DNA of 64,000 bases, from the NCBI GenBank assembly GCA_964505005.1, contig CAZDFQ010000002.1, positions 92,310 through 156,309 of the forward strand. Direction: 5' to 3'. Below are positions 1 through 58,528 of the stretch, in pieces (position 1 is the stretch's first letter; each line of letters starts with the position of its first letter). The translations under genes were made by a program, and so were the position numbers. Source of the DNA: an uncultured Candidatus Saccharibacteria bacterium. GTDB lineage: Bacteria; Patescibacteriota; Minisyncoccia; UBA6257; 2-01-FULL-56-20. The notes under the pieces are model-generated. The model had not been told where the DNA came from. It was given only the letters and a program-made list of their open reading frames with translations, and searched no databases.

Positions 1-2400
1 TGCCAAGATTTCAATCCCTTTAGTTTTTGCTTCGTTCACGAGAAAAGCGATTCTTTCAATGTCTCCCAGTTCGGCGTTAAGAAGCGCGGCCATGAATTCT
101 TCCGGATAGTGGGCTTTGAGAAAAGCCGTGCGAAAGCCGATTAAGGCGTAGCAGACGCCGTGGCTGCGGTTGAAGCCGTAACGGGCAAACGGCTCGAACC
201 ACTTCCAAATTTCTTTCGCCTTTTTTTCTTCGACGCCATTTCTAACCATCCCTTTGACCATTTTGTCTTCCTGTTCAAGAAGGAGCGATTTTATTTTTTT
301 GCCCACGGCCTTTCTCAAAGTGTCAGCTTCGGAAAAAGTGAAACCAGCCAGCTCCCGGGCGATTTCCATCAATTGTTCCTGATAAAGCATTATTCCATAA
401 GTTCTTTTGAGAATCGGTTCGAGCTTCGGGTGGAGATAAGTTATTTTTTCCCTGCCGTGTTTGCGATTGATGTATTTTGGCACCATGCCGGTTTCCAAAG
501 TTCCCGGTCGGTAGAGCGAAATCATGGCCACGACGTCTTCGAATTCTGTGGGCACCAATTCTTTGAGATAATGCCGCATGCCTTCGCCTTCCAGCTGGAA
601 AACGCCGGTCGTGTCAGCTTTTTGGAGTAATTCGAAAGTCTTTTTGTCATCAAGGCTGAGCTCCGATACTTTTATTTCTTCGCCGCGCAGTTCTTTGATG
701 AGTCGAATCGTTTCTTCGATGATAGTCAGATTTTTCAAGCCCAAGAGGTCCATTTTAAGAAGCCCCAAGTCCTCGATGCTGTGCATTTCGAATTGAGTGA
801 TGACAATGTCTTTGCCCTGCGGGGCAAACTGGAGCGGCACATATTCGGTCAGCGGCTCTTTGGAAATCACCGTACCGCAGGCGTGGACCGAAGCGTGTCT
901 GGCCACGCCCTCTAAGTGTCTGGCTGCGTCAAGAAGTTTTTTGGCATCGTCGTTCGTCTCGTAAAACTCTTTCAATTCCGGCACCTTCTTCACGGCGTCT
1001 TCCAGTTTCAATTGAAAAGGAATGAGTTTGGCAATTTGGTCGCAAAAGCCGTAGCTCAAGCCCATGGCCCGGCCGGCGTCGCGCACCGCGGCCCGGGCCG
1101 CCATGGTTCCGAAAGTAATTATCTGAGCCACCCGATTTTCGCCATATTTTTCGCGGCTGTAAGCCAGCACCTCGTCGCGCCGGGTGTCCGCGAAGTCAAT
1201 GTCGATGTCCGGCATTTGCACCCTTTCCGGATTCAGGAATCGTTCAAAAAGAAGATTGTATTTGAGCGGGTCAACATCGGTGATGCCGAGAATATAGGAA
1301 ACCAAGCTGCCGGCTGAGGAGCCGCGGCCCGGGCCCACGGCAATGCCGTGCGTTTTCGCCCAGGACACCAAATCCTGCACAATGAGGAAATAATCGGCAA
1401 AACCGGTTTTGGTGATGACGCCCAGTTCGTATTCCAGCCGCTCCTTCAATTCCGGTGTTTGTTCATCCGGCGCAAAGCGCTGATTGATTTTTTGATTGAT
1501 TAATTCGCGGAGATATTCGTTGGCTGATTGATTGTTCGGCGTCGGGAAACTCGGCAGGTGGATTTTATTGAGTTCCAGTTCGACATTGCACTGGTCGGCA
1601 ATTTTCGCGGTATTGGCCGCGGCCTCGGGAATTTCTTTGAACACTTCAGCCATTTTCTCCGGGGAAGTCATCGAATAATCGTCGGCTTTCAGAGTCATTC
1701 GGTCATCGTCGCTCAGCCGGCTGCCGGTTTGGACTGCGAGGAGAATGTCATGGTATTCGGAGTCCTCGGCTTCAGCATAATGAATGTCCTGGGTCGCGAC
1801 CAAAGGAGTTTTTGTTGTCCGGCTTAATTCAATCAATCTCCTCCAAACCTTTTTGTGCCACTCCGGATTGAAATTCGGATGATGACCGATTTCCAGAAAG
1901 AAATTTTCCGGACCGAAAATTTCTTTGTATTCATCAATAATGGGTTCCGCTGGCTTGTCGTTCAAAATCGCCTGGACCAATTCGCCGGAATAGCACCCGG
2001 ACAGGGCGATGAGCCCGTCTTTGTACTGGCGCAAGAGGTCTTTATCAACCCGCGGCCGATAATAAAATCCTTCGAGATGCGCTTTGGTAACGAGCTGAAT
2101 CAGATTTTTCCAGCCCTCGTGATTTTTGGCGAGCAGTATCAGATGGTAATAACGTTCGTTCGGCTCGCGGCTGAACCGGTCGCGCGGCGCCACATAAGTT
2201 TCCACGCCTAAAATCGGCTTGAGGCCGGCCGCCTTGGCTTTTTTGTAAAATTCCACGGCACCGTAGAGCGCTCCGTGGTCAGTCAACGCCAGGGCCTCCA
2301 TCCCGAGCGCTTTGGCTTGGCTGATTAAATCGTCAATTTTAGCCAAGCCATCGAGCAGGGAATAGTGAGAATGAGTATGGAGATGAACGAATTTCGACAT
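1..2400 (-). CDS. dnaE: DNA polymerase III alpha subunit, N-terminal part (PHP domain onward). The gene runs off the window start; start codon at 2400-2398.
   Basis: Minus-strand translation begins MSKFVHLHTHSHYSLLDGLAKIDDLISQAKALGMEALALTDHGALYGAVEFYKKAKAAGLKPILGVE..., the classic PHP-domain N-terminus of DnaE. The + strand ORFs at 160-2211 are mirror-frame artefacts. Confidence 0.85.
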   Translation of the reverse strand, partial: MSKFVHLHTHSHYSLLDGLAKIDDLISQAKALGMEALALTDHGALYGAVEFYKKAKAAGLKPILGVETYVAPRDRFSREPNERYYHLILLAKNHEGWKNLIQLVTKAHLEGFYYRPRVDKDLLRQYKDGLIALSGCYSGELVQAILNDKPAEPIIDEYKEIFGPENFFLEIGHHPNFNPEWHKKVWRRLIELSRTTKTPLVATQDIHYAEAEDSEYHDILLAVQTGSRLSDDDRMTLKADDYSMTSPEKMAEVFKEIPEAAANTAKIADQCNVELELNKIHLPSFPTPNNQSANEYLRELINQKINQRFAPDEQTPELKERLEYELGVITKTGFADYFLIVQDLVSWAKTHGIAVGPGRGSSAGSLVSYILGITDVDPLKYNLLFERFLNPERVQMPDIDIDFADTRRDEVLAYSREKYGENRVAQIITFGTMAARAAVRDAGRAMGLSYGFCDQIAKLIPFQLKLEDAVKKVPELKEFYETNDDAKKLLDAARHLEGVARHASVHACGTVISKEPLTEYVPLQFAPQGKDIVITQFEMHSIEDLGLLKMDLLGLKNLTIIEETIRLIKELRGEEIKVSELSLDDKKTFELLQKADTTGVFQLEGEGMRHYLKELVPTEFEDVVAMISLYRPGTLETGMVPKYINRKHGREKITYLHPKLEPILKRTYGIMLYQEQLMEIARELAGFTFSEADTLRKAVGKKIKSLLLEQEDKMVKGMVRNGVEEKKAKEIWKWFEPFARYGFNRSHGVCYALIGFRTAFLKAHYPEEFMAALLNAELGDIERIAFLVNEAKTKGIEILA

Positions 2401-2501
2401 AGTAAAGAGAACGAAAATTCTTTTCAATTGTAATAGATTGTCCGCCGAAAAGGAAGCCTTTTTGCATTTTAGGCGGCTTTTAATAGAATAATAAAGCAAT
2501 T

Positions 2502-2574
2502 GCCACCTTAGCTCAGCTGGTAGAGCAGCACTTTTGTAAAGTGACGGTCCCCGGTTCGAGCCCGGGAGGTGGCT
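2502..2574 (+). tRNA. tRNA-Thr (anticodon TGT)
   Basis: Cloverleaf: acceptor gccacct/aggtggc, D-arm gctcagctggtagagc, anticodon loop tttgtaa, T-arm cccgg-ttcgagc-ccggg, short variable loop. No CCA encoded. Confidence 0.6.
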
Positions 2575-2583
2575 CAAAAAATT

Positions 2584-2994
2584 ATGCAGGACCAATTATT
2601 TTATGTCGGCCAAAAGGCCTTTATCGAGAAGAGTGGCGCAGTTTTGGTGATGTACGATAAAAGCGGTCGGCTTGATTTTCCCGGCGGCAAGATTCAAGAA
2701 AGCGAAGATGACCTCGTTGAATCGTTGAAACGTGAGGTTTTTGAAGAAACCGGTTTGGAGATTGAGGTCGGCGAGCCGTTTTATGTTTGGCATTTTACTT
2801 TACCGCCGGAGCATAAAAATGCCGGCAAAAAAGTTTTTCTCGTCGGGTTCAGGTGCCGTTATGTTGGCGGAGAGTTAAAAGAATCGGCCAGCCATCGCGA
2901 TTACGAGTGGGTGACTCGCGAAACATATGGTAAATTAAATTTCGGAAATTACATCCATTTCAAAGCGCTTGAAAAATATTTTGAGGCCAGGTAA
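2584..2994 (+). CDS. NUDIX hydrolase
   Basis: Nudix box GGKIQESEDDLVESLKREVFEETGLEI (GX5EX7REUXEEXGU). The start was moved to the ATG at 2584 to avoid overlapping the upstream tRNA. Confidence 0.75.
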   Translation: MQDQLFYVGQKAFIEKSGAVLVMYDKSGRLDFPGGKIQESEDDLVESLKREVFEETGLEIEVGEPFYVWHFTLPPEHKNAGKKVFLVGFRCRYVGGELKESASHRDYEWVTRETYGKLNFGNYIHFKALEKYFEAR

Positions 2995-3008
2995 GTTTAA
3001 TAGAGGCC

Positions 3009-3081
3009 GCCGATGTAGCTCAGCTGGTAGAGCAACTCCATGGTAAGGAGTAGGCCGCCGGTTCAAGTCCGGCCATCGGCT
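3009..3081 (+). tRNA. tRNA-Thr (anticodon GGT)
   Basis: Acceptor gccgatg/catcggc, anticodon stem actcc/ggagt with loop atggtaa, T-arm gccgg-ttcaagt-ccggc. Confidence 0.65.
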
Positions 3082-3122
3082 CAATTTACAAAATAGGCTT
3101 TATTTGTTAATATCCCGCCGCA

Positions 3123-3302
3123 ATGGCAAAATTGAAGTATTCAGAAAACTTAATCGCGCTCAAATGTTCGGCCTGCAACCGCCGGAATTATTACACGCGC
3201 AAAAACAAAAAAACTATTGAGCGGAAAATCGAGTTCAAGAAGTTTTGCAAATGGTGTCGAAAACATACATTACATAAAGAGGTTAAAATTACAGGGAAAT
3301 AG
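3123..3302 (+). CDS. rpmG: 50S ribosomal protein L33
   Basis: 59 aa: MAKLKYSENLIALKCSACNRRNYYTRKNKKTIERKIEFKKFCKWCRKHTLHKEVKITGK, with the L33 zinc-ribbon CxxC...CxxC. It is shorter than the ORF-track cutoff, so it was found by manual translation. Confidence 0.8.
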   Translation: MAKLKYSENLIALKCSACNRRNYYTRKNKKTIERKIEFKKFCKWCRKHTLHKEVKITGK

Positions 3303-3498
3303 TTTTCGCACCATTTGCGGGAAAGGGGTTCCGCCAGAGGCGGACAGGCGGGAAAACGGGAGTTTCCCCGTGGCGGAAGTCTTGAAACCGCTGGGTTTCA
3401 AAGAGCGCGAGCGAGTCCACCCAGTTGAGCGAGCGCGAGCAGATGGTGTCACGCACACTATTCACAAGGAGACGAAAATCAGCGGCAAATAGTTTTTT

Positions 3499-3574
3499 GG
3501 GGGCATAGTTTCAATCGGCAAAATATTTCTCTCCAAAAGAAAAGTTCCAGGTTCGAGCCCTGGTGCCCCCGCCA
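3499..3574 (+). tRNA. tRNA-Trp (anticodon CCA), with encoded 3' CCA
   Basis: Acceptor gggggca/tgccccc, anticodon stem tttct/agaaa with loop ctccaaa, T-arm ccagg-ttcgagc-cctgg, then gcca. rpmG followed by tRNA-Trp is a conserved gene order. Confidence 0.6.
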
Positions 3575-3576
3575 TA

Positions 3577-3822
3577 ATGAGGAAAATAACTTTCAACTCC
3601 GTAGCCCAGACTTGTCTCGTGGTTTTTACGATACTGGGATTTTTATTGACTTCGCTGAAATTGCCTCAATATGGTCTTATAGCGGCGCTGATTTCTCAAA
3701 TTTTTTGGCTCTATAGTTCTTACCGGGCCTGGCGTGAAGCCGATCAGATAGGCATATTTATAACGACTATTTTTATAATAATTACGATAGTGTACGGACT
3801 GATAAATTATTGGTTGTTGTAA
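3577..3822 (+). CDS. Small hypothetical membrane protein (81 aa, 2-3 TM). It sits where secE is usually found but does not look like SecE.
   Basis: ORF begins 2 nt after the tRNA-Trp CCA. Hydrophobic segments LVVFTILGFLLTSL, LIAALISQIFWLY and IFITTIFIIITIVYGLINYWLL. Confidence 0.35.
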   Translation: MRKITFNSVAQTCLVVFTILGFLLTSLKLPQYGLIAALISQIFWLYSSYRAWREADQIGIFITTIFIIITIVYGLINYWLL

Positions 3823-3869
3823 TTTGACAGATATTCTGATTTACTATCACCAGCGTTGATGTCTTTACA

Positions 3870-4598
3870 TTGCTTGATAAGGAGGATAAAGCCATGGACG
3901 AATGTCGCGAGGCGCCAGTCAGGCCCTGGAAGCGTCCTGAAACACTTTCCGCTTGGGTCGAAATGTTCGGCAGGATCTACGATGAGCACGACGAGGAGAC
4001 GTACCCCGCCGACAAGGAACTCCTAGCCCGCCTCTATGAAGAATGCCTTCGTCTCTTGGAGCCGCTGCGGAAGGAGCAGTTCGAGAAAATCCGAGCCAGG
4101 TTGCCATACCTCTTCGTATGGTTCGTTGCCTGTTTGAGCCGTGCGAAAGTCGGCCTCGCCCGGGCAGCCTGGCACAAGTATCCCGCGGTCTGCCCCTACA
4201 GGTTCGAAGAAGAGAACTGTACTTGCATCATCATTAGGGGCAGCACCTACCGGCCGGATGATCCGCGACTCATTTCGTATCGGGAGGATATCCGCAAGAT
4301 GCCGCAGTCGCTCTATGAGTGGCAGAGCATGTTCCGCCATCTTTTTGGGGCATGCAACGAGCGGGGGCAGACGACGATGGCGGTTCTCTGCCACTTGGGT
4401 GAAGAGGCACAGGAATTCGGCGAGCAATTCCGGTTCGGGAACAAGGGCAGGATGGAGGAGGCCGCCGATTTCTTCGCTTGGTGGTGCGGGGCCGCGACGA
4501 AACTCGGTATCCAAAATGCGGAGGATCTTCTCTGGCGGCATTACCCCGGAGTGTGCGATGTTTGCGCGCTCCCGCGATGCCGCTGTCCGAAGGTTTGA
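3870..4598 (+). CDS. Cys-rich hypothetical protein with a MazG-like NTP pyrophosphohydrolase-type helical motif, in a GC-rich foreign-looking patch
   Basis: LGEEAQEFGEQFRF...EEAADFFAWWCGAATKLGI resembles the MazG EExxE / EExxD motif pair. C-terminal CDVCALPRCRCP. Local GC is far above neighbouring genes, and overlapping shadow ORFs appear on both strands. Confidence 0.4.
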   Translation: MLDKEDKAMDECREAPVRPWKRPETLSAWVEMFGRIYDEHDEETYPADKELLARLYEECLRLLEPLRKEQFEKIRARLPYLFVWFVACLSRAKVGLARAAWHKYPAVCPYRFEEENCTCIIIRGSTYRPDDPRLISYREDIRKMPQSLYEWQSMFRHLFGACNERGQTTMAVLCHLGEEAQEFGEQFRFGNKGRMEEAADFFAWWCGAATKLGIQNAEDLLWRHYPGVCDVCALPRCRCPKV

Positions 4599-4726
4599 AT
4601 CGGAATGAACTAAGATTGCGGCCTGCTCGATTCTATCGGGTGGGCCGCAAATCATTTCAAAAGGATTTTCGGCAGACGAGCAGCAGTTATCTAACTAATA
4701 TGCTAAAAATGCTAATATAGTTCATT

Positions 4727-5968
4727 GTGTCCGCTTCACTTTCCAAAAAGCAGATTTTCCGGCTCTCCGCGGTTTTTGCTTTGATTTATTTTTTCTCGCC
4801 GAACGGCATGGCTTCTTTGCCCGGCCTGACCGTCAGTTTTCTTTTAAAAGATGTTTTGAAAATAACCGCCACAGCCGCTTCGTATTTCAGCGCGGTTACG
4901 ATTCTCGGCTGGGCAATCAAGCCGCTCTGGGGAATAATTTCCGACACTGTGCCGATTGCCGGTTATCGCCGCAAACCCTATCTCATCATTACGGCAATTT
5001 TGGCAGCCGTTATCTGGTTTTCCCTCGGCCAAATTGAGAATTACACTATCAAAATTTTACTGGTGCTTTTCACTTTATCGTCGTTCGCCTATGCGTTTAT
5101 GGATGTGATTGGTGACGGTTTGATGGTGGAAACCGGCAAGCCCCACAACCTCACTGGCCGGTTCCAGTCAATTCAGTGGACCGCGGTTTATACTGCCTCA
5201 ATCATCACCGGCGTTGCCGGCGGCTGGGTCGCCGAACATCTGAAACCCCAAATCGTCTTTTCTATCAATGCGATTTTCCCTCTTGTTGTTCTCTTAGGGG
5301 TCTTATTGCTTAAAGAAACAAAAGCGCTCGAATATAAAGAGCAGGTCAAAACGAGTTTACGGGCCTTGAAAGAATCATTCAGTAAGCCCACTCTCTGGCT
5401 CTTGGCGTTTTTCCTGTTTTTCTGGACTTTTAGCCCCTCGTTCGGTGCGCCGTTTTTTTATTACGCAGTTGATAATTTGAAATTCGGCAAATTATTTTTC
5501 GGCGTGGTCGGTTCAATCGGCGCGGCAGCGGCGGCTTTGGGTGCGGTGATTTACGGCAAATATCAGCCGAAATTCCGAACTCGTTCCTTGGTAAAATTCG
5601 CTATCATCATCGGCGTCATCGCCACGCTTTTCGATTTGGTTTACTTCACGCCGTTCATTACCCAGCATCTCGAGCGCGCGAGAATGATTTACATTTTGTC
5701 CGCGGCAATTCTCGGCGTCATCGGCAGCATCACTTTTTTGGTGATGCTCAATGCCGCGGCTTTGGCTTCGCCCAGATACAGCGAAGGCACGACTTTTGCC
5801 TTGCTGACCTCCTTCTGGAACATCGGTCTTATCGGTTCGGATATTTTAGGCGGCTATCTTTTCAGTAAAATCGGTTTGCAACCGTTAATCTGGATTTCCG
5901 CTGGGTTCACAGCCGCGGCCTGGCTGATTCTTCCTTATCTCAAATTCGGCGACGAGTCCCGCCCATAA
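4727..5968 (+). CDS. Folate-biopterin transporter (BT1) family MFS permease
   Basis: YFSAVTILGWAIKPLWGIISDTVPIAGYRRKPYLII matches the BT1 family signature. About 12 TM segments. GTG start at 4727; an alternative ATG lies near 4806. Confidence 0.7.
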   Translation: MSASLSKKQIFRLSAVFALIYFFSPNGMASLPGLTVSFLLKDVLKITATAASYFSAVTILGWAIKPLWGIISDTVPIAGYRRKPYLIITAILAAVIWFSLGQIENYTIKILLVLFTLSSFAYAFMDVIGDGLMVETGKPHNLTGRFQSIQWTAVYTASIITGVAGGWVAEHLKPQIVFSINAIFPLVVLLGVLLLKETKALEYKEQVKTSLRALKESFSKPTLWLLAFFLFFWTFSPSFGAPFFYYAVDNLKFGKLFFGVVGSIGAAAAALGAVIYGKYQPKFRTRSLVKFAIIIGVIATLFDLVYFTPFITQHLERARMIYILSAAILGVIGSITFLVMLNAAALASPRYSEGTTFALLTSFWNIGLIGSDILGGYLFSKIGLQPLIWISAGFTAAAWLILPYLKFGDESRP

Positions 5969-6815: not shown

Positions 6816-7100
6816 TTCAATTTAATTTTTTGACAAATATTCTGCAATTTGTATAATCTTTTCATACTTTTCGGCTATTGATGCAAAGATATGCATAACT
6901 TAATTCGGATGGGCGCATTTGTAGTGCGCTATTTGGATGCATAGAAAGGTCGAAAGAAATTCAGCATCACTTGTACATTTGGCAGCGAGGCAACGCAAAA
7001 ATAACCAAACTTTTGTGATTGCCGAGCGAACCAAATGATGGAACGAAGTTCCATGATTTTTGTGGTGAGTTTGGACCACTAGAGTGAGCTTAGAGAATAA

Positions 7101-9259: not shown

Positions 9260-9354
9260 TATTCGCATGAGCGCATTCGCATTTTCCGCCAGAGGCGGAC
9301 CCGCCTCTGGCGGGCGCGTCACCTCTAAGGCGCGAGCGAGCGCTTTTCGCATGC

Positions 9355-9621: not shown

Positions 9622-9865
9622 CGAAATTTTTATTTAACGCCTCTAAAATTCTCGCGCCCTTTTCCCCGTAGGAAATAAAGCGTAGGCCGTCAGAGGGTGC
9701 AGGAGTTGCAGAATAATTGCCGCCCCTCTTTATTTTCTCGGTTTATTATGGTTTCTGCTCGCATCACGCTTTTCCCCGTAGGAATTAATTCCTACGGGGT
9801 TTTCTGGCAATTTCCTACGGGGCTTGCGATTGAATTGCCTCTACTTACTGCTCACCACCTACTAC

Positions 9866-10213: not shown

Positions 10214-10397
10214 CTTCCGAAAACCCGGCCGGTGGTTTCCGGAAGAATCACATACTTATCTTTGATTTTTTAATCATAACATTCCTGCAGGCTGGCAGAT
10301 AGACAAGGCGCCTGCCAATGTGAAGTCCGCCACGAATTCGTTATGCCTAAGTCGGCTGTTATGCTATAGCACAACACTCGGTTGTTTATTGCGCCCC

Positions 10398-11489: not shown

Positions 11490-12833
11490 ATGGTTCTCAG
11501 TAAAAGAAAAAATTTAGACAAAAAAGCTCGTGTATTCGTGGCAATGTCCGGCGGCGTGGATTCGTCGGTCGCGGCTTGGCTGTTGCAAAAGCAGGGTTAT
11601 GATGTTATCGGCGTTTTTATGAAATGTGTCGGCCCCTCGACGGGGTTCGGGGTAGACTGTGCCGAGAGCGATGCCGAGGATGCCCGCCGGGTTGCTGAAA
11701 AATTAAGTATTCCTTTTTATGTTTGGGATTTTGAAGAGGAATACAAGCGCCGGGTGATGGATTATATGATTGACGGCTACCGGCAAGGGCTGACGCCGAA
11801 TCCGGATGTGATGTGTAACCGCGAAATTAAATTTGGGCTTTTTTTGGAGAGAGCGCTCGAAATGGGGGCGGATTATGTGGCAACAGGGCACTATGTGCGG
11901 AAACTTTGTTTTGCGAGAACCGGCGTCGCTCCGACTCCGGCGGTCGGAGCGCGCCTGCATCTCGGTTCTGCGGCTCGCTTACGGCGAGACCAAGCCCGCA
12001 GAACCTCCGATAGCTTCTCGCAAAACAAAGTTTCCTTTGGATTGGGTATTGCAAGGGATTTGAATAAGGACCAATCCTACTTCCTCTGGACTCTGAATCA
12101 GGAGCAGTTGAAGCCCTGCCTTTTTCCAATTGGCGATTATCTTAAATCCGAAGTTCGGGAAATCGCCCGTCAAGCCGGTTTGCCGACCGCCGACAAAAAG
12201 GATTCCCAGGGTATTTGTTTTTTGGGTAAGGTAACGCTTGATGAGTTTCTGAAGCAATATATTCCGGCGCGGCGCGGGGCGGTTTTAACGACTACCGGCC
12301 AGGAAATCGGCGAACATCAGGGTGCCCAGTTTTATACAATCGGACAAAGGCATATTTCGATCGCGAATCGCCAAGGGCAAATCGCCAATAGTCAGCCGCT
12401 CTATGTTGCCGAAAAAGATGTTGCAGCTAATATGCTGGTAGTCGCCGAAGGCGAGGACAATCCGATGCTCTATAAAGAGGAAGTTGAATTAAAGGATGTC
12501 AATTTTATCAGCCCAGAACATTCTAACATTCTGCAGAATGTTAGAATGTCAGTATCGGCTCGAGTTCGTTATCGCCAACCGTTGGTACCGGCAATCCTCT
12601 ATAAGCTAAAAGCTAAAAGCTATAAACTCGTTTTTGACCAGCCGGTCAAATTCGTGGCCCCGGGTCAGTCCGCGGTGTTTTACAAAAAGGGACAAGGGAC
12701 AAGGGACCCCGCACCAAAGCCCCGAAGGAGAACAAGTTCCCTACGGGGCAGGCAAGCTTGGTACGGGGCAGGCAAGAGAGAGGGAGAGTTCGAGCTGCTG
12801 GGCGGCGGAATAATAAAAACTGTTATGCTATAG
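11490..12833 (+). CDS. mnmA: tRNA-specific 2-thiouridylase MnmA, enlarged by two in-frame repeat insertions
   Basis: VFVAMSGGVDSSVAAWLL (PP-loop), ATGHYVR, NKDQSYFLW, KKDSQGICFLG and ELLGGGII. About 447 aa from the ATG at 11490, versus about 360 aa for the canonical protein. Upstream hairpin gggcgttgccgc-agta-gcggcaacgccc plus a U-run at 11384-11420. Confidence 0.85.
   Translation: MVLSKRKNLDKKARVFVAMSGGVDSSVAAWLLQKQGYDVIGVFMKCVGPSTGFGVDCAESDAEDARRVAEKLSIPFYVWDFEEEYKRRVMDYMIDGYRQGLTPNPDVMCNREIKFGLFLERALEMGADYVATGHYVRKLCFARTGVAPTPAVGARLHLGSAARLRRDQARRTSDSFSQNKVSFGLGIARDLNKDQSYFLWTLNQEQLKPCLFPIGDYLKSEVREIARQAGLPTADKKDSQGICFLGKVTLDEFLKQYIPARRGAVLTTTGQEIGEHQGAQFYTIGQRHISIANRQGQIANSQPLYVAEKDVAANMLVVAEGEDNPMLYKEEVELKDVNFISPEHSNILQNVRMSVSARVRYRQPLVPAILYKLKAKSYKLVFDQPVKFVAPGQSAVFYKKGQGTRDPAPKPRRRTSSLRGRQAWYGAGKREGEFELLGGGIIKTVML
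11899..12035. repeat. 137-bp palindromic element with perfect 21-bp terminal inverted repeats, inserted in-frame in mnmA
   Basis: Left IR ggaaactttgttttgcgagaa (11899-11919) is the exact reverse complement of the right IR ttctcgcaaaacaaagtttcc (12015-12035). The interior carries nested palindromes such as cgctccgac...gtcggagcg. It encodes a ~45-aa extra block between ATGHYVRK and GLGIARDLNKDQSYFL. Confidence 0.7.
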
Positions 12834-12912
12834 CATAACACCTGCACTTCTTGTTTATACGATTGCCATTTTTCACCAATGGTACAGATTCAGTAATCTT
12901 AGCTTTACAACT

Positions 12913-13482
12913 ATGATTTTATTATTTACTGGGAACGGTAAAGGTAAGACGACCGCTTCGCTTGGGCAGATGGTCCGTGTTCTTGGCCGCGGCAAAAACG
13001 CTTTGATGATTCAATTTATCAAAGGGCTGTGGAAATCAGGAGAAGACGAGTTCGCCAATATGTTTAATGAGACAAGAGACAAGAAACAAGGTAAAAAATC
13101 CGTGTCCCGTGTCCCGTGTCCCATGTTTCAGATTCGCAAAATGGGGCTCGGTTTTGTCGGCATTCTCGGTGATAAACTGCCGCGGAAAGAGCATCAGAAA
13201 GCCGCGGAAAAAGCCCTGGAGTATTTCAAAGACCAGGTAAGAACCGGCCAATGGTATTTAATTGTCCTGGATGAGATTAATGTGGCTGTTTCCTTGGGGC
13301 TGCTTACTGTCAAAGCGGTTAGGGAAGCCATCGAAGATTTTCCCAAAGACCGGCTTTTGATTTTAACCGGCCGCCAGGCCGCGCCGGAACTTATTGAAAT
13401 TGCTGACCTGGTTACGGAAATGAAGGAAATAAAACATCCGTTTAAAGAAGGCAAGCTGGCAGAATACGGCATAGAATTCTGA
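12913..13482 (+). CDS. Cob(I)alamin / corrinoid adenosyltransferase family protein (CobO/BtuR-like P-loop)
   Basis: FTGNGKGKTTASLG P-loop, IQFIKG, LIVLDEI and LILTGRQAAPELIEIADLVTEMKEIKH. It contains an inserted heptamer-repeat block at 13069-13122. Confidence 0.65.
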   Translation: MILLFTGNGKGKTTASLGQMVRVLGRGKNALMIQFIKGLWKSGEDEFANMFNETRDKKQGKKSVSRVPCPMFQIRKMGLGFVGILGDKLPRKEHQKAAEKALEYFKDQVRTGQWYLIVLDEINVAVSLGLLTVKAVREAIEDFPKDRLLILTGRQAAPELIEIADLVTEMKEIKHPFKEGKLAEYGIEF

Positions 13483-14860: not shown

Positions 14861-14865
14861 TAGAA

Positions 14866-15012
14866 AAATCAAATATCAAATATCAAAATGCAAAATGACA
14901 GATAAAAATTCAAAAATTATTTACTTTAACCAATTTTAAATTTTACCTTGTCATTTTTCCGCCAAAGGCGGATCAGCCTCGGGCTTGAGATTTTTGAATT
15001 TTGCATTTTTAA
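14866..15012. repeat. Composite element: AT-rich inverted arms (caaaatgcaaaatg...cattttgcattttt) around a GC hairpin ccgccaaaggcgg-atcagcctcgggct. A second copy lies inverted at 38497-38575.
   Basis: The reverse complement of 38505-38575 matches 14951-15010 nearly base for base. Confidence 0.55.
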
Positions 15013-15015
15013 TTT

Positions 15016-24137: not shown

Positions 24138-25468
24138 AGTTTCTAATCCGCGGCGGCCAGAAATTGAGCGGCGAAATCAACGTCAGCGGCGCCAAAAATT
24201 CCGTGCTCAAAGGAATGGCTGCCTCGGTTTTGTCAGCCAAGCCGGTTATCCTGGACAATGTGCCCTTAATTGAGGACGTTTTCCGGATGCGGGAATTACT
24301 GGAGCATCTCGGCGCTGAAGTGGCCATACCTGCCGGTAGACAGGGAGAAGGCGGCCCGCTTCGCCCGCCCGCTCCGACTCGGAATCGAGGCGAGCGAAGC
24401 GAGGCGAGCCGAACGCTTCGAATCAATCCCTCTTCAATCAAAAAAACCGAACTTAAAAACGAGATTGCTGAACGGCTCCGGGCTTCGATTGTTCTGGCTG
24501 GCCCGGTGCTCGCCCGTTTGGGAAAAGTAAGTTTTCCTCACCCGGGCGGCTGCGTTATCGGCAAAAGACCAATTGATGTTTTTTTGGCTGGCTGGCAGGC
24601 CATGGGCGCTAAGGTCCGGGAAAGCCAAGCTGGTTTTCTGGTTTCGGCCCGAAAATTAAAAGGCAAGGATTTTACTTTCCGCCTGGTCAGCGTTACCGGC
24701 ACGGAAACTTTGATGTTGACCGCGGCTTTGGCCTATGGCAAAACTGTTTTGCGGAATGCCGCGATGGAGCCCGAAATCCCTCACTTGGCGGAATTTCTTA
24801 ACGACTCCGGCGTGAAAATCTCCGGGGCCGGCACCCCGACCATTGAAATTATCGGCAGTAATGGCCGCCTGCTCCATCCCAAAAGTCCTTTTCAAGTCCT
24901 TAGTGACCGGATTGAAGCCGGCAGTTTTCTGATTCTGGGCGCGGCTTTGGGAAGAAAACTGAAAGTAGTTAACTGCATCCCGGAACATCTGACGGCTTTA
25001 ATCGCCGCGCTGCAGGAAGCTGGTGTCGGACTGGAGATTGGTCAGGACTGGATTTCTGTCAGTCAGCCGCGAAAATTAAAAGCCGTGGATGTCCGGACTC
25101 ATGAATACCCCGGCTTCCCAACTGACCTTCAGGCGCCTTGGGCGGTGCTGATGACTCAAGCCCAGGGAGACAGCTTGATTTTCGAAACGATTTTTGAAGG
25201 CCGATTTTCTTACATCGAAGAACTAAAGAGAATGGGCGCGAAAATTTTGACGCTTGACGAGCACCGCATTTTGGTCAAAGGCCCGGCTCATCTTCGCGGC
25301 CGGGAAATTGAAAGCCCGGACTTGCGGGCTGGCTTGGCTTTTGTCATTGCGGCTTTGCTCGCCAAAGGAGAATCAGTAATCAACAACATTTATCAAATCG
25401 ACCGCGGCTACGAAAAAATCGACGAGCGGCTGAAAAATTTAGGCGCGGACATTTCTCGTCTCAGCTGA
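24134..25468 (+). CDS. murA: UDP-N-acetylglucosamine 1-carboxyvinyltransferase MurA, carrying an in-frame ~28-aa repeat-derived insertion
   Basis: MKFLIRGGQKLSGEINVSGAKNSVLK...FPHPGGCVIGKRPIDVFL (catalytic Cys loop) ...LRAGLAFVIAAL. Confidence 0.85.
   Translation: MKFLIRGGQKLSGEINVSGAKNSVLKGMAASVLSAKPVILDNVPLIEDVFRMRELLEHLGAEVAIPAGRQGEGGPLRPPAPTRNRGERSEASRTLRINPSSIKKTELKNEIAERLRASIVLAGPVLARLGKVSFPHPGGCVIGKRPIDVFLAGWQAMGAKVRESQAGFLVSARKLKGKDFTFRLVSVTGTETLMLTAALAYGKTVLRNAAMEPEIPHLAEFLNDSGVKISGAGTPTIEIIGSNGRLLHPKSPFQVLSDRIEAGSFLILGAALGRKLKVVNCIPEHLTALIAALQEAGVGLEIGQDWISVSQPRKLKAVDVRTHEYPGFPTDLQAPWAVLMTQAQGDSLIFETIFEGRFSYIEELKRMGAKILTLDEHRILVKGPAHLRGREIESPDLRAGLAFVIAALLAKGESVINNIYQIDRGYEKIDERLKNLGADISRLS
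24341..24425. repeat. GC-rich palindromic insertion inside murA, encoding QGEGGPLRPPAPTRNRGERSEASRTLRI
   Basis: cgcttcgcccgcccgctccgactcggaatcgaggcgagcgaagcg forms a stem (cgcttcgc/gcgaagcg). It shares cgcccgcccgc with the 50613 element family and cgctccgactc with the mnmA insert. MurA homologs have about 20 residues here; this one has about 50. Confidence 0.55.
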
Positions 25469-26642: not shown

Positions 26643-26757
26643 AATCTTAAATCCAAAGCTTAAATGTCAAATCAAATCCAAAATCCCAATGACAAAAAAT
26701 TTGGATTTTGGGCTTGAGGCTTGATTTGAAATTTGGATTTTGATATTCGGATTTTCA
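26643..26757. repeat. AT-rich nested-palindrome MITE-like element (aaatccaaa / tttggattt family), copy 1
   Basis: About 85% identical to 34322-34435. Internal dyads ccaaaatcccaa...tttggattttggg. Confidence 0.6.
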
Positions 26758-28180: not shown

Positions 28181-28297
28181 GAATCTCTAATTTCTAAATC
28201 CTAATTTCTAAACAATTTCAAATATCAAAATTCAAAATGGTTTGAGATTTGATATTTGGATTTGTTTAGGATTTAGAGATTAGGATTTAGGATTTTT
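28181..28297. repeat. AT-rich nested palindrome (taggattt/aaatccta family): outer arms aatctctaatttctaaatcctaatttctaaacaa / ttgtttaggatttagagattaggatttaggatt and an inner dyad caaatatcaaa/tttgatatttg
   Basis: Reverse complementarity of the arms seen directly. Related shorter copies at 32095-32160, 32525-32610 and 43715-43745. Confidence 0.55.
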
Positions 28298-29477: not shown

Positions 29478-30230
29478 ATGATTGAAGAGCCGAGAATTAT
29501 TTATGAAGACAAGAATTTCGTGGCCGCGGCCAAGCCGGCTGGCCTGCTTACCCACCCGCTAAAAGATAAAAACTATAAGCTAAAAGCCGAGGAGTACACC
29601 TTGACCGATTGGCTTGTTCGAAAATATCCGGAGATGAAGACCGTCGGCGATGCTCCGGAAACCTGCCCGACTTCGCATGGACGAAGTCCAGGCGGGCGGG
29701 TCCGCCCCGGCATTGTTCACCGCTTGGATAAAGATACTTCAGGTATTTTACTGGCCGCGAGAAACCAAAAATATTTTAAATATCTGAAGTCGCTTTTTAA
29801 GAATCGCCAGATTAAAAAAACTTATCTGGCGGTTGTTTTCGGCCGATTAAGAGATAAAGAGGGAACAATCGCCAAAGCAGTTAAAATCAAGAAAGGCACC
29901 GTCAAAAGAACGGTTTTCAGGGGCAAAATGGCCAAAGAAGCCCTGACGCATTACCGAGTGAAAAAGGTTTTCAAGATAGGAGGCGAAGAATTTTCTTTTT
30001 TGGAAATCGTTCCGGAAACCGGCCGGACGCATCAAATAAGAGTCCATCTTGCTTCAATCGGGCACCCGATTGTGGGCGACCGAATTTACGGCTTCAAAAA
30101 AACAGCCGCTACCCGATACCCGCTACCCGATACCCGATTGATGCTCCACGCCTATTCGCTGGAATTTTCCACCGAAGAGGGAAAGAGGATTAAACTGGAA
30201 GCCGAACCGCCTGACACAATGATGATATAA
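29478..30230 (+). CDS. RluA-family pseudouridine synthase, with a short tandem-repeat-encoded insertion
   Basis: GIVHRLDKDTSGILLAAR (the HRLD catalytic motif). Confidence 0.8.
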   Translation: MIEEPRIIYEDKNFVAAAKPAGLLTHPLKDKNYKLKAEEYTLTDWLVRKYPEMKTVGDAPETCPTSHGRSPGGRVRPGIVHRLDKDTSGILLAARNQKYFKYLKSLFKNRQIKKTYLAVVFGRLRDKEGTIAKAVKIKKGTVKRTVFRGKMAKEALTHYRVKKVFKIGGEEFSFLEIVPETGRTHQIRVHLASIGHPIVGDRIYGFKKTAATRYPLPDTRLMLHAYSLEFSTEEGKRIKLEAEPPDTMMI

Positions 30231-32089: not shown

Positions 32090-32160
32090 TTCGTTGCCGT
32101 TCTTATTCAATTTTCTTTTAAAATCCTAAATTCTAAATCCTAAACTCTAAATAAATTCCA

Positions 32161-32523
32161 ATGGCCGAAATTCAAAATTCTAAACAATACGACTTAGAAA
32201 AACGGACCTTAGAATTTGCAAGAAATGTAAGATTGTTTATTAAAAAATTACCGCGGACGTTATCAAATACAAAAGACACAAAACAAGCCATCAGGTCATC
32301 CGGTTCCATCGGCGCAAATTATATTGAAGCCAACGAATCTTTAAGCAAAAAAGATTTCTCTATGAGAATTAAGATTTGTCGTAAAGAGGCAAAAGAGACA
32401 GAATACTGGTTGCAGCTTTTGGATACCGGAGGAGAAGTCGGATTAGAAAACGAAAAGGAGAATCTTATAAAAGAGGCTATTGAACTAAGAAAGATTTTCG
32501 GCTCTATCTTGAAAAAATCATAA
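32161..32523 (+). CDS. Four-helix-bundle protein (23S rRNA intervening-sequence protein family)
   Basis: LEFARNVRLFIKKLP...SIGANYIEANESLSKKDF...EYWLQLL matches TIGR02436. It is flanked by AT-rich inverted repeats. Confidence 0.75.
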   Translation: MAEIQNSKQYDLEKRTLEFARNVRLFIKKLPRTLSNTKDTKQAIRSSGSIGANYIEANESLSKKDFSMRIKICRKEAKETEYWLQLLDTGGEVGLENEKENLIKEAIELRKIFGSILKKS

Positions 32524-32608
32524 TAGGTTTGCTAAAAGTTTTGGTCATTTGAATTTAGGATTTTGAATTTATTTAGGATTTAGATATTAGGATTTAGGAT
32601 TTATTTTT

Positions 32609-34321: not shown

Positions 34322-34435
34322 AAATCCAAATGTCAAAATCCAAATTCCAAATCAAATCCAAAATCCCAATGGCAAAAATTTGGATTTTGAACTTCGAGCT
34401 TGATTTGACATTTGAGTTTTAGATTTAGGATTTTA
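34322..34435. repeat. AT-rich nested-palindrome MITE-like element, copy 2
   Basis: See 26643-26757. Confidence 0.6.
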
Positions 34436-34443
34436 ATATATTC

Positions 34444-36166: not shown

Positions 36167-36336
36167 CCGAAGAATCTAGAATCTAGAATTTAGAAAATAT
36201 GAAACTTCGTTTCATCAATTGGTTCGCTCGGCGAAAATAAATGTATAATTCATTTACTTTCTCCTCGCTGCCAATTGTAGAATCTAGAATTTGAAAATTG
36301 GTAAAATATGTAAGACGGTAGCAGTGGCGATAAAAA

Positions 36337-36984
<648 letters not shown>

Positions 36985-37118
36985 ATGATTCGTATTTAAA
37001 GACCACATAATCCGAATATACGAATGCACCCGAATAACCCGAATTATAATCGCTTTATTCGGAACATTCGGATATATTCGGGTATTCGGATTATGCGATA
37101 CATCCTAATTTAACATAA

Positions 37119-38057: not shown

Positions 38058-38495
38058 ATGAATATTCTACTTTCTACTTTCTATTTTCTACCTTCTCGTA
38101 AGGGGCAGACCGCTCTTTCCCTGGTTTTCCTGATAGGCATAGTTATAGTTTCTATAGGAGCGACAATCGCATTTTTATCCTCGAGTTTTTTGAGTTCGGG
38201 CTACGGATTTCAGGCGGCCAACCGGGCCTTAGCCATTGCGACCGCCGGAGTCGAGGACGGCTTGGTAAAATTAATTCGGAACAAAGATTTTTCAGCCGGA
38301 ACGCCTTATTCCGTTCCCGTTGACAATGATTCAGCGACCGTTACAGTCACTCAGAACTCTCCCGTTGCCGGCCAAGCAACCATTATTTCTTCCGGGACAG
38401 CCCTCTTCCGTCAGAGAAAAATTCAGGTTATTGTGGCGATAAACAGCACCACCAGCGAAGTCAGCGTTATTTCCTGGCAGCTTCTGACCCTATAA
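38058..38495 (+). CDS. Pseudopilin-like protein; its 5' end carries the same heptamer repeat as 36337
   Basis: MNILLSTFYFLPSRKG|QTALSLVFLIGIVIVSIGATIAF. Confidence 0.45.
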   Translation: MNILLSTFYFLPSRKGQTALSLVFLIGIVIVSIGATIAFLSSSFLSSGYGFQAANRALAIATAGVEDGLVKLIRNKDFSAGTPYSVPVDNDSATVTVTQNSPVAGQATIISSGTALFRQRKIQVIVAINSTTSEVSVISWQLLTL

Positions 38496-38586
38496 TAAAA
38501 ATGCAAAATGCAAGGTTCAAAAATCTCAGCCCGAGGCTGATCCGCCTTGGGCGGAGAGATTTGATTTTTGAATTCATATAGAATAT

Positions 38587-40277: not shown

Positions 40278-40970
40278 TTAGGATTGTTTGGGTTGCTTAT
40301 AAAATTTCTTCCCAATCTCTTCAAACGCCTGAGCAAGAGTCTTTTTATCCCGACTGTTGATTTTTTTAAGCACAAATTCGCCCGCTTTCATTCTGAAAGC
40401 CGCTGATTCACGCAGATTTTTACGCTGATTTATGCTGATATTATCCGCGTTTATCTGCGTTTCTAATCCGCGTTTATCGGCGTTCCGGCGGATACCTATC
40501 CGCAGTCGCCAGAAATTTTTCGTTTTAAGTTTCCGAATGACCGATTCTACTCCTTGATGTCCTGCCGAGCTCCGGCCGAAGGAAATCTTATATTTGCCTA
40601 ATTCGATATCTGAGTCGTCATGAACTATTAAAACTTCTTGCGGCTGGAGGTGATATTTTTTTAAAGTTTTGTCAACAAAATTTCCCGATTCATTCATATG
40701 GGTTCCGGCTTTTAGCAGTTTAAATTTATGAAATTTCGTTTCCTCAATTAGTTCGCCCCGCCCGCCTGAGTTGCTCAGGCAAGTCGGGCGGGTCGTCGAA
40801 AACAAACTGGTGTTTGCTTTCTTCTCGCTGCCGATTGGAAAATTTAAGAGAGGATTTTTACTTAGATAATCGACAGCCAAAAACCCAACATTATGGTAGG
40901 TGCCTTCGTACCTTTTTCCAGGATTGCCCAGGCCAATGATGATTTTAATTTTAGAAAGCTCCTTAAACAT
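40278..40970 (-). CDS. pth: Peptidyl-tRNA hydrolase, carrying an in-frame repeat-element insertion
   Basis: IIIGLGNPGKRYEGTYHNVGFLAVDYL...KFKLLKAGTHMNESGNFV...LIVHDDSDIELGKYKISFGRSSAGHQGVESVI. 230 aa versus about 190 aa for the canonical protein. Confidence 0.8.
   Translation of the reverse strand: MFKELSKIKIIIGLGNPGKRYEGTYHNVGFLAVDYLSKNPLLNFPIGSEKKANTSLFSTTRPTCLSNSGGRGELIEETKFHKFKLLKAGTHMNESGNFVDKTLKKYHLQPQEVLIVHDDSDIELGKYKISFGRSSAGHQGVESVIRKLKTKNFWRLRIGIRRNADKRGLETQINADNISINQRKNLRESAAFRMKAGEFVLKKINSRDKKTLAQAFEEIGKKFYKQPKQS
40745..40840. repeat. Copy of the cccgcccgcctgagttgctcaggcaagtcgggcggg-core element, inserted in-frame in pth
   Basis: About 85% identical over ~95 bp to the intergenic copy at 50613-50730, including the ...tttgctttcttctcgctgccgattgg right arm. 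Confidence 0.7.
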
Positions 40971-43110: not shown

Positions 43111-43289
43111 AAATAGCCCCCTAAATCAATTTATATTCGCAGCATTCGCATCTATTCGCCCGCCCGCCTGAGTTGCTCAGGCAAGTCGGGCAGGTAGATT
43201 CGCATTATATTCAAGCCGCTTGACATAATGCGAATGATGCGAATCATATGCGAATGTCGCGAAAAACCGGATTATGATAGATTAAAATT

Positions 43290-50594: not shown

Positions 50595-50612
50595 TCGGAT
50601 GTGCCTATTCGT

Positions 50613-50730
50613 ATGAAGCTCCGCTTCATCAATCGGTTCGGCCCGCCCGCCTGAGTTGTTCAGGCAAGTCGGGCGGGTCGGCGAAAATAAATGCTTCGCA
50701 TTTACTTTCTCCTCGCTGCCGATTGTAAGG
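50613..50730. repeat. Full-length intergenic copy of the GC-core palindromic element (left arm atgaagctccgcttcat hairpin, core cccgcccgcctgagttgttcaggcaagtcgggcggg, right arm ...tttactttctcctcgctgccgattgtag)
   Basis: Related copies: 40745-40840 (in pth), 43160-43200 (core only), 19787-19870 (core with a nested insertion), 36199-36290 and 56233-56314 (arms without the core). Confidence 0.7.
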
Positions 50731-56231: not shown

Positions 56232-56423
56232 TATGAAGCTTCGCTTCATCATTTGGTTCACCCGGCAATCACAAGAATCTTTTTGTTCTTGAGTTGCCTC
56301 GTTGCCAAATGTAGAATTAAATATAATGCGAATGGCGCGAATTCTTATGCGAATGTTGCGAATATTTTAATAAACCCCTCTGCGGTTATTCGTATCATTC
56401 GCACACATTCGTAAATTGGCATT

Positions 56424-56945
56424 ATGTTAATTATGGACGCCAATTCACAAAAATACCAAGAGCTGATTAAAAAAATCGAGGCGCTTAAAAAATCGGACAA
56501 GGTCGATTTGTCCACGGACGAGGACTTGAGCTTGGCGGTGATGAACCTGATTAGCCTGGAAGAACATTTTTTCTTCACCGCCGAAAAGACCGGTAAAGGA
56601 GAGTATCTTGATTTGCTCAATGAGGTACGGGCGCTGCGGAAATCATTGCTGGCTCGTTTGATTGACAAGCACGAAGGCGAAACCTGGTGCGCGAGCAAAC
56701 ATTTGCTGGCCGCGACCATGCGGTTGCTCGAAGTCGGCACCAAACTGCATTCGGACAATAAAAAGAAAGAAGCTAAAGAAATATTCGATTATGCCCATCG
56801 TTTGTATTCCATTTTCTGGGGGTTGCGCTTGAAACTTCTTGATACCAAAGGATTAAGAGAAGCAGCTGCCGAATCGGCGAAGGCGGACAAACCCTGGACT
56901 CTCGAAGATATCGTCAATAAACTGGTTGACTGTTGCGATGAGTGA
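56424..56945 (+). CDS. Hypothetical cytoplasmic helical protein
   Basis: No motif recognised. Confidence 0.35.
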   Translation: MLIMDANSQKYQELIKKIEALKKSDKVDLSTDEDLSLAVMNLISLEEHFFFTAEKTGKGEYLDLLNEVRALRKSLLARLIDKHEGETWCASKHLLAATMRLLEVGTKLHSDNKKKEAKEIFDYAHRLYSIFWGLRLKLLDTKGLREAAAESAKADKPWTLEDIVNKLVDCCDE

Positions 56946-57034
56946 TAAAAAATCAAAAATCCCCGCCTGCGCCGACCCGCACTTCGCCGTTGACTTCAGC
57001 AGGGAGAGGGCTTCGGCGGGCAGGAAAAATCAAA

Positions 57035-58447: not shown

Positions 58448-58528
58448 GCGGTTTCTAAATTATCCCCACCTCTCTTGCATAAATACCCCGTAGGGGTATA
58501 ATTAGAATTATAGGCGAGCGATAATAAA

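Follow-up and report, generated by a model that had tools for sequence, protein, structure and literature searches.

Small palindromic sequences that lie in frame within protein-coding genes are known from Rickettsia, where they were described as Rickettsia palindromic elements (RPEs; Ogata et al. 2000; PMC10969869). Repetitive extragenic palindromic (REP) sequences are palindromes with an unpaired tag, GTAG or CGTC, at one of their ends (PMC3733652). An excess of heptameric simple sequence repeats (SSRs) has also been described, for example GGGAATC of Xanthomonas, and GGGGA(C/T)T and the short tandemly repeated repetitive (STRR) sequences of Nostoc, and is attributed, as a hypothesis, to polymerase slippage (Mrazek et al. 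2007; PMC4692102). Here we report on a repeat-derived segment near the 3' end of mnmA, the gene for tRNA 2-thiouridine(34) synthase, in 64,000 nucleotides of DNA from an uncultured, Paceibacteria-type bacterium of the Candidate Phyla Radiation (CPR; Patescibacteria) (GenBank assembly GCA_964505005.1, contig CAZDFQ010000002.1, positions 92,310 to 156,309; hereafter referred to as the window). We consider it likely, with a rough probability of 0.7, that this segment expands a permissive MnmA loop in frame and in two layers, a heptamer microsatellite and a single copy of a nested-hairpin element that is also dispersed among other genes. Both an excess of heptameric SSRs and palindromic elements in frame are already known kinds. 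Neither was found to be reported in CPR in the searchable literature, the coverage of which is incomplete and offers no proof of novelty.

The hairpin element behaves as RPEs do, in that it resides in unrelated host genes, forms a stable hairpin and has open frames. RPEs are, like this element, small, palindromic, hairpin-forming and dispersed repeats. Both lie in frame in housekeeping genes that are unrelated to one another and belong to a reduced genome, both are translated within tolerated regions of the host protein, and both come in several families per genome. RPEs are longer (about 100-150 bp versus about 70 nt) and each RPE family has one conserved peptide, whereas the present element is read in three sense frames. 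There is no evident relation in sequence or lineage (Alphaproteobacteria versus CPR), and homology is not claimed. Unlike RPEs, the element is built from a duplicated module with conserved mismatches, and it is often found within or beside heptamer microsatellites. REP sequences and their REPIN composites resemble it in being 20-40-nt GC-rich imperfect palindromes whose units can pair into larger structures (PMC3733652), in that some of them lie inside genes, and in a spread that is thought to be strand-specific and to proceed via single-stranded hairpins. Unlike these, the element has no end tag, its copy number is not high and its clear copies are not extragenic; furthermore, no gene for a REP-associated tyrosine transposase (RAYT) was identified, the open reading frames (ORFs) of the window not having been systematically screened for one. 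Membership in the REP/REPIN class was rejected because of the missing unpaired GTAG/CGTC tag: the palindrome ends fall between (G)AAA and CCCCG and between GGGG and CAGGCAAG, with CTAC/GTAG inside the stem.

The (GGGACAA)3 tract belongs to the heptameric SSR kind, since both the period-7 excess and the mostly intergenic location of such arrays are found here. This kind is likewise marked by an excess specific to period 7, a mostly intergenic location, GGGNNNN-type units, 3-5 units per array and occasional inverted pairs. In contrast, the arrays described here belong to a CPR host, have many different units, form arms of long intergenic hairpins, and also lie in frame within genes. The SSR contingency loci of Haemophilus and Neisseria are similar to the tract in having a short tandem repeat in a coding sequence (CDS) with a unit that is not a multiple of three. 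They differ from it in that the mnmA tract has 3 units, is located at the 3' end of a housekeeping gene, and is part of a genome-wide non-adaptive pattern. The hairpin family appears to be new, as a modular nested hairpin that is read in three sense frames, is seen in sense orientation only, and is nested with heptamer arrays.

The C-terminal insertion of MnmA and its two layers

The ORF at 11490-12833 encodes MnmA, as it contains all three Pfam MnmA domains (tRNA_Me_trans HUP, PRC-barrel and C-terminal barrel; E=1.7e-73) and matches the structure of E. coli MnmA (PDB 2DER; E=1.4e-86). The best relatives, at 55-66% identity, are found in metagenome-assembled genomes of Candidatus Liptonbacteria, Wolfebacteria and Jorgensenbacteria (Paceibacteria/CPR), and one Liptonbacteria contig (L001, GCA_016204335.1) is syntenic over efp, DUF3850, truB, mnmA, cobO-like, rpsB and tsf. 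The gene and the parts of its insertion are as follows.

11490-12833, + strand: mnmA (tRNA 2-thiouridine(34) synthase) CDS, 447 aa, from Pfam and PDB matches
12687-12707, + strand: perfect heptamer microsatellite (AAGGGAC)x3, i.e. GGGACAA units (Tandem Repeats Finder, TRF, x3.0, 100% matches)
12707-12776, + strand: nested-hairpin repeat element, about 70 nt (covariance model R1 match 12702-12784, 102 bits)
12707-12717, + strand: outer 5' arm of the hairpin element
12719-12732, + strand: inner 5' arm of the hairpin element
12733-12736, + strand: loop of the hairpin element
12737-12749, + strand: inner 3' arm of the hairpin element
12750-12757, + strand: spacer of the hairpin element
12758-12768, + strand: outer 3' arm of the hairpin element
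12769-12776, + strand: conserved 3' tail CAGGCAAG of the hairpin element
12777-12794, + strand: purine-rich tail AGAGAGGGAGAGTTCGAG, encoding REGEFE (DNA and peptide comparison of the C-terminal sites)

The segment between SAVFY and LLGGG comprises 37 residues in the window MnmA versus 5 residues in 83 of the 115 orthologs and 4-5 residues in 57 of the 62 mnmA loci that were fetched. The insertion therefore amounts to about 32 residues, or codons, and is in frame. This bears out the original prediction of an in-frame C-terminal insertion in MnmA, which most orthologs lack. The predicted peptide of the insert includes PKPRRRTSSLRGRQAWYGAGK. In an AlphaFold model of MnmA (mean predicted local distance difference test score, pLDDT, of 79), strands are placed at residues 394-400 and 434-446, and the pLDDT is below 50 at residues 405-411 and 414-429. 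The insert is therefore predicted to be an unstructured loop that separates the two terminal strands, which form the last beta-hairpin of the C-terminal barrel. According to this model the insertion point is a structurally tolerated surface position, a property that was examined for mnmA only.

Alignment of the orthologs, which had been proposed as a check, showed that most of them have no insert and that 32 of the 115 have other, mutually unrelated inserts of 8-43 aa at the same C-terminal site. The inserts of two of these proteins (P0062 and P0120) are internally repeated, and that of locus L084 consists of a 39-nt tandem repeat (x2.5) with a CAAAATC-UUCG-GATTTTG hairpin. Judging from these alignments, the C-terminal loop site is an insertion hot spot that is expanded in about a quarter of the orthologs. 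The REGEFE tail has counterparts in relatives (AKEGSSLE in L001, AKEGSNICE in L083 and GKGEYE in L082) that suggest homology, and it probably is the remnant of an older short insert common to these relatives.

The heptamer array covers 21 nt, or 7 codons, and encodes KGQGTRD; since three heptamer units make 21 nt, the reading frame is kept. Directly 3' of it, the exact 15-mer TACGGGGCAGGCAAG is found at 12742-12756 and 12762-12776, its only two occurrences. With 20 nt from start to start and a spacer of 5 nt, they make up a 20-nt direct repeat that is 16/20 identical, and they are translated in different frames (LRGRQA and YGAGK). Heptamers and 15-mers had both been described as tandem repeats. 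This description holds for the heptamers (TRF x3.0), but the 15-mers, with their starts 20 nt apart, are hairpin arms of a dispersed sequence. Indeed, each 15-mer represents a 3' arm of the hairpin plus the following CAGGCAAG. The underlying hairpin module, CCCCGAAGG-loop-CCTACGGGG-CAGGCAAG, is duplicated as an inner and an outer hairpin (outer stem CCCCGCACCAA/TTGGTACGGGG; inner stem GCCCCGAAGG/CCTACGGGGC), and each stem has one conserved mismatch at the equivalent position.

The 68-nt core of the element (12705-12772) folds with -32 kcal/mol and z=-3.9 (RNAfold), and five element copies gave z-values of -2.9 to -3.9. Significance is confined to this core, the folding of the whole 121-nt region being insignificant (z=-0.9). 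Across the copies, 94-95% of cells pair and there are 4 compensatory pairs. The outer stem alternates between CACC/GGTA and AAGG/CCTA (CG<->GC at two pairs), and the L099 copy shows a CG->AU compensation. The covariation score was reached by 0 of 500 shuffles, with the caveat that the alignment (A5) was itself fitted to the covariance model.

Dispersal of the hairpin element and alternative readings

A copy of the element that is about 95% identical to window positions 12711-12776 (66 nt) resides in valS on JGI contig Ga0210017_1000263 (L093). This copy, which surfaced from a peptide-seeded metagenome scan for close mnmA orthologs, has an additional 36-nt hairpin nested in its loop, and its insert peptide reads ...PEPRRRT...LRGRQAWYGAG.... 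Other hosts were found by a protein-database search with six-frame translations of the element. In-frame copies are present in a metallophosphoesterase, the ribosome hibernation factor HPF, ribosomal protein L22 (rplV), a histidine kinase and an Elp3-like radical-SAM protein, and a phosphoglucomutase-family protein has two in-frame copies that are read in two different frames (a and c). A second six-frame query (946 aa, concatenated), which had reduced sensitivity, gave 2 matches, both to new hosts. At the DNA level, loci L094-L099 align over about 83 nt with a mean column identity of about 84%, and stretches of about 66-83 nt that are 90-95% identical to the mnmA element are present in at least 7 other genes on other contigs. 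Near-identical copies are those of L093, L094, L096, L097, L098 and L099. R1 scores of 66-106 bits were obtained in six of the loci, all in sense orientation. A further clear copy lies in tsaD of L093 (1589-1638, 40 bits), together with a weak partial match at 1039-1119 (E=0.63), which gives two clear copies and one weak partial match in 6 kb. Both tsaD matches sit within direct heptamer arrays. All clear gene-internal copies (8/8) have the orientation of the host gene, and between them they are read in each of the three sense frames. Every copy is open in its three sense frames and has a TAG in one antisense frame, and the host ORFs are intact. The antisense frames gave no matches, though they were part of both peptide queries.

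As a separate observation on L093, tsaD (805-2127) and valS (2341-4761) contain several in-frame Lys-rich inserts from AAAATCA-type arrays (KSKIKNKKSKI, SNIQHLSPNIQYLIPNIQ). TsaD proteins are about 340 aa long; the TsaD of L093, with 440 aa, is longer than expected for the family.

Within the window, weak relatives of the element are found in one spacer.

9757-9838, both strands: intergenic palindromes of the CCCCGTAGG/CCTACGGGG hairpin module, weak relatives of the element (R1, E=0.008-0.02)

A link between CCTACGGGG and palindromes in the 9622-9865 spacer had been noted before and was confirmed. CCTACGGGG occurs 6 times in the window versus 0.18 times expected: four occurrences are palindromes in the 9664-9822 part of the spacer, one lies in the mnmA insert and one at 58486. 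Because of the R1 match and the common CCCCGTAGG/CCTACGGGG module, the spacer link was a good clue. BLAST of the insert against the window gave only matches of 9-13 nt, so that this comparison showed no dispersal within the window.

In the reading that we favour, a period-7, slippage-type array, (GGGACAA)x3, makes up the first layer, located in the turn between the last two strands of the C-terminal barrel, and a copy of the approximately 70-nt nested-hairpin element directly 3' of the array is the second. The dispersed element would presumably be a non-autonomous mobile element. The ribosome would read through the insert and thereby add to MnmA some 32 residues of disordered, Arg/Lys-rich loop, which the protein tolerates. 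As a weak guess, the element might spread in trans by a strand-specific single-stranded-DNA hairpin mechanism in the style of IS200/IS605 or REP/RAYT, because its hairpin architecture and strand bias suggest this. The element itself we infer to be selfish or neutral, and not of use to its host.

Several observations weigh against this reading. The R1 search of the 64 kb yielded one full copy, that in mnmA, and the weak spacer relatives, and R1 did not find the element in about 440 kb of other CPR mnmA loci. A high copy number within this genome is thus not supported. The boundaries of the element, its target site and its mobility are read from similarity alone. The flanks of the aligned copies show neither terminal inverted repeats nor shared target-site duplications, the inverted repeats that are present being the hairpin itself, and the element was for that reason also rejected as a miniature inverted-repeat transposable element. 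No transposase turned up, no search having been aimed at transposases. The contigs with the other copies are unbinned and could come from fairly close relatives of this organism, and the protein-database search is blind to intergenic copies. Lastly, the sense-only orientation could mean that there is selection at the RNA or peptide level, and that the element is not a neutral passenger.

Selection at the RNA level would apply if the hairpin were a determinant of mRNA processing or stability, or a ribosome-pausing site. We regard this as improbable, although it would fit with the sense orientation of all clear gene-internal copies, the maintenance of both stems by compensatory changes, and the presence of similar composite hairpins in many short spacers between co-directional genes. 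However, the copies are located at unrelated positions in unrelated genes, the orthologs of which are devoid of them, and the antisense strand of the element folds better than the sense strand (-40 versus -32 kcal/mol). Moreover, gene orientation is confounded with replication strand, because about 68 of the 77 ORFs of the window are on one strand, and arm-to-arm correction in palindromic DNA can mimic covariation. No relevant Rfam match was obtained in gathering or permissive scans.

Likewise, it is unlikely that the insert is an exapted protein segment, i.e. an Arg/Lys-rich disordered loop kept for added tRNA contacts of the C-terminal barrel. The C-terminal domain helps to hold the tRNA in the E. 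coli MnmA-tRNA complex 2DER, 11 of the approximately 33 inserted residues are K or R, and the expansion of this site in about a quarter of the orthologs also fits with this idea. On the other hand, the purine- and G-rich DNA accounts for the basic composition, the loop is predicted to be unstructured, and the inserts that different orthologs have at this site bear no sequence relation to one another. The DNA of the element is read in three frames in other proteins, and therefore the peptide is not what is conserved.

The heptamer array has its own context. Exact period-7 runs were observed 9 times in the window versus 0.15 times expected from dinucleotide shuffles, and of the other periods from 2 to 24 none was enriched apart from the multiple 14. 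TRF listed 29 arrays of period 7 or 14, of which 16 are intergenic, 12 are in ORFs and 1 is at an edge; 16 of the 29 thus fall within the 16% of the window that is non-coding, 84% being coding. Many other Patescibacteria mnmA loci show the same period-7 bias. The array in mnmA is an ordinary member of this genome-wide, lineage-wide and mostly intergenic compositional pattern. In the mnmA of L082 (P0029, about 60% identity), an imperfect (GGGTCAR)x4 array is found in frame at the same codon position (peptide KKCHGSRVRGQGKGEYE versus KKGQGTRD...GAGKREGEFE in the window). The window insert therefore looks like an L082-type heptamer insert plus a further insertion; the two arrays, as far as their sequences tell, may be homologous or convergent.

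The original prediction had regarded the array as a substrate for slipped-strand frameshifting. In this case (GGGACAA)n would slip by mispairing and thereby switch MnmA on and off, as at a contingency locus. It is a perfect 7-nt repeat inside a CDS, a change by one unit in either direction would shift the frame and replace the invariant last strand ELLGGGII, and period-7 arrays are evidently prone to slippage in this lineage. Nevertheless, we consider such a switch very unlikely. Phase-variable tracts are usually much longer than 3 units, and the present one has only 3.0 units in 21 nt. It lies 126-146 nt before the CDS of mnmA, a housekeeping gene for tRNA modification, ends at 12833. A contingency tract would be expected in the promoter or the 5' part of the CDS of a gene for surface structures, restriction-modification or virulence, where slippage gives ON/OFF states; here, slipped alleles would only replace the last strand. 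In addition, L082 keeps its imperfect 4-unit array in frame at the same site, and arrays of this kind occur genome-wide and are mostly intergenic. No length variants were found in the contig collections, which hold no close strain: a gapped exact pattern spanning the tract had no match in the genome or metagenome contig collections, the peptide-seeded metagenome scan revealed no close ortholog carrying this insert, and the contig index had no entry with an identical MnmA protein. If the favoured reading holds, phase-variable MnmA, for which there is no supporting evidence, would be a false lead.

Two further explanations are hardly credible. A purely local origin, in which the hairpin and the 15-mers arose in place by template switching or duplication, would fit the internally repeated arms and the abundance of arrays and palindromes with a de novo look in this genome, but is contradicted by the highly similar copies in at least 7 other genes on other contigs. 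An artefact of assembly or sequencing would have to be considered since repeats in metagenomes are prone to misassembly, but the frame and the invariant C-terminal strand are kept, and the same element is present in separate, independent assemblies from JGI, ENA and Logan.

A programmed -1 ribosomal frameshift was rejected as a separate candidate. MnmA modifies tRNA-Lys, which made a -1 frameshift at AAA-AAG attractive. From the AAA AAG at 12684-12689 to the hairpin there are about 17 nt, versus an expected spacer of 5-9 nt, and the site is unconserved (TAC TTG CCC in L001 and TAC AAG AAG in L082).

Other repeat elements in mnmA and in the window

Besides the C-terminal insertion, mnmA contains three repeat features.

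11895-12056, + strand: second in-frame structured element in mnmA, about 140-160 nt, three helices (minimum free energy -86 kcal/mol, z=-9.0)
12518-12549, + strand: perfect 32-nt palindrome, (AACATTCT)x2 plus inverse, in frame in mnmA, encoding HSNILQNVRM
12821-12840, + strand: 20-nt palindrome TGTTATGCTATAGCATAACA (TGTTATGCTATAGCA(T/C)AACA) over the mnmA stop codon (repeat search, 95% identical)

The three-helix element is unrelated to the hairpin element and adds about 42 aa after GHYVR of MnmA. It is present at the same mnmA site in L001 (6394-6548), L002 (3477-3644), L011 (4360-4523) and L083 (634-795), and compensatory changes across 5 orthologs affect 27 of its 40 pairs. Conservation is seen in the hairpin loop CUCC(A/G/U)GCGG and in the motifs GACCAAGC and CUCCGAG, while the outer stems differ completely between copies. 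A covariance model of this element (R2) revealed two intergenic copies in L004, at 3563-3716 (+) and 1514-1680 (-), the mnmA of L004 itself being devoid of it. About 40 of the 115 orthologs have an insert of similar size at the GHYVR site. There was no match to this element in Rfam, and a search of protein representatives with the 53-aa peptide of this site gave 0 matches.

The peptide SNIL(Q/K/E)NVGM, which corresponds to the 32-nt palindrome, is present in only a subset of the orthologs at 55-65% identity. At this site L084 has AATATTCT x2 and L001 has GCGAATAA x4. The 20-nt palindrome supplies an atypical C-terminal extension, KTVML, the orthologs ending about 4-5 residues earlier. It is repeated at 10357-10376, some 20 nt beyond the truB stop codon. 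As it has no T-run, it is not a classical terminator.

A further dispersed repeat of about 90-125 nt, the pth family (ATGAAGCTTCGCTTCATCA...CTCGGCGAAAA...TTCTCCTCGCTGCC), has the following copies.

40722-40846: composite with GC hairpin, in frame in pth (minus-strand gene)
50612-50727: composite with GC hairpin, intergenic
36198-36282: copy without GC hairpin, intergenic
6971-7060: copy without GC hairpin, intergenic
56232-56320: further copy
57738-57816: copy without GC hairpin, in frame in gene 57443-58447

The nested 28-nt GC hairpin, CCGCCTGAGTTGYTCAGGCAAGTCGGGC, has 3 exact or near-exact copies versus 0 expected, which lie at 40762, 43164 and 50647 and are all on the + strand whatever the orientation of the gene. 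An in-frame diverged member of the same hairpin family is found in an RluA-type pseudouridine synthase (29637-29729, peptide APETCPTSHGRSPGGRVR), and a GC-rich hairpin insert is translated in frame in murA (24317-24436, peptide GRQGEGGPLRPPAPTRNRGERSEASR). Many short intergenic spacers between co-directional genes are long imperfect hairpins with arms that are tandem 7-10-mer arrays (AAATCCT, TTCTAGA, ATTCGCA and others), and several have a GC-rich hairpin of the CCGCCAAAGGCGG type at their centre.

28187-28290, 26649-26740, 34322-34443, 37006-37095, 14861-15015, 38496-38586 and 43111-43289: array-armed hairpin spacers

Another GC-rich hairpin, CCGCCAGAGGCGGACCCGCCTCTGGCGG, which is read as ...SARGG(S/P)A(F/S)GG..., is in frame near the N-terminus of the MnmA orthologs P0045 and P0093. 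It is also found in the mid-site of L003 (GESASGGK) and at 9267-9330 of the window, downstream of efp, and is a candidate for another dispersed family.

Heptamer arrays were also observed in or around other genes of the window. The CobO-like gene that follows mnmA (12913-13482) has GGGACAM arrays at 13069 (+) and 13102 (-). Its stretch 13069-13126 consists of GAGACAA x3 and CCGTGTC x3.9, the second array being inverted, and is in frame with the peptide NETRDKKQGKKSVSRVPCP; the L001 ortholog has an unrelated sequence of nearly equal length at the corresponding position. A gene at 32161-32523 for a 120-aa protein of the PF05635 family ('23S rRNA intervening sequence protein'; E=1.3e-14) lies between inverted arrays, AAATCCT x4.6 upstream (32121-32152) and AGGATTT x7.7 downstream (32548-32603), and with these looks like a cassette. 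A thioredoxin-like ORF (56942-57412) contains an 84-nt AT-rich hairpin of heptamers at 57025-57108, the T-rich arm of which encodes a predicted N-terminal hydrophobic helix, ILIFLIVILIFAFLFLI. This suggests either a membrane anchor supplied by the repeat hairpin or a wrongly assigned start codon. Lastly, two pilin-like genes with an N-terminal methylation motif have TTTCTAC arrays, x4.7 at 36346-36378 and x4.6 at 38065-38096, in their putative leader peptides (LLSTFYFLLS).

A wider interpretation, which we put forward as possible but doubtful, is that a guild of 'coding-compatible' hairpin elements, not described until now, resides in CPR/Paceibacteria genomes, with at least 4 families in the window, namely the approximately 70-nt nested hairpin, the approximately 150-nt three-helix element, the approximately 90-125-nt element and the 28-nt GC hairpin. 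Such elements would be stop-free on the sense strand and would nest in one another and in heptamer arrays. Housekeeping genes would be colonised because tiny genomes offer little intergenic space, and the strict sense orientation and the kept pairing would reflect single-stranded-DNA transposition or a function at the RNA level. If it exists, this guild would be a main origin of those lineage-specific insertions which give CPR proteins their odd appearance.

Repeat inserts in proteins of a reduced genome

If the reading of the MnmA insertion as a repeat-derived expansion of a permissive loop is true, many odd length differences and low-complexity inserts in CPR housekeeping proteins would represent repeat elements and microsatellites, and not functional domains. 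In the window, the carriers would be MnmA, Pth, the RluA-type pseudouridine synthase and the product of 57443-58447, with MurA carrying a GC-rich hairpin insert; on other contigs they would include ValRS, TsaD, L22 and HPF. This would affect annotation, alignment-based phylogeny and structure prediction across this large uncultured radiation. It would also raise the questions of what mobilises the hairpins, why the gene-internal copies are sense-only, and whether the inserts seed disordered RNA-binding loops. CPR bacteria would then provide, beside Rickettsia, a second natural system with selfish DNA inside the essential genes of a reduced genome.

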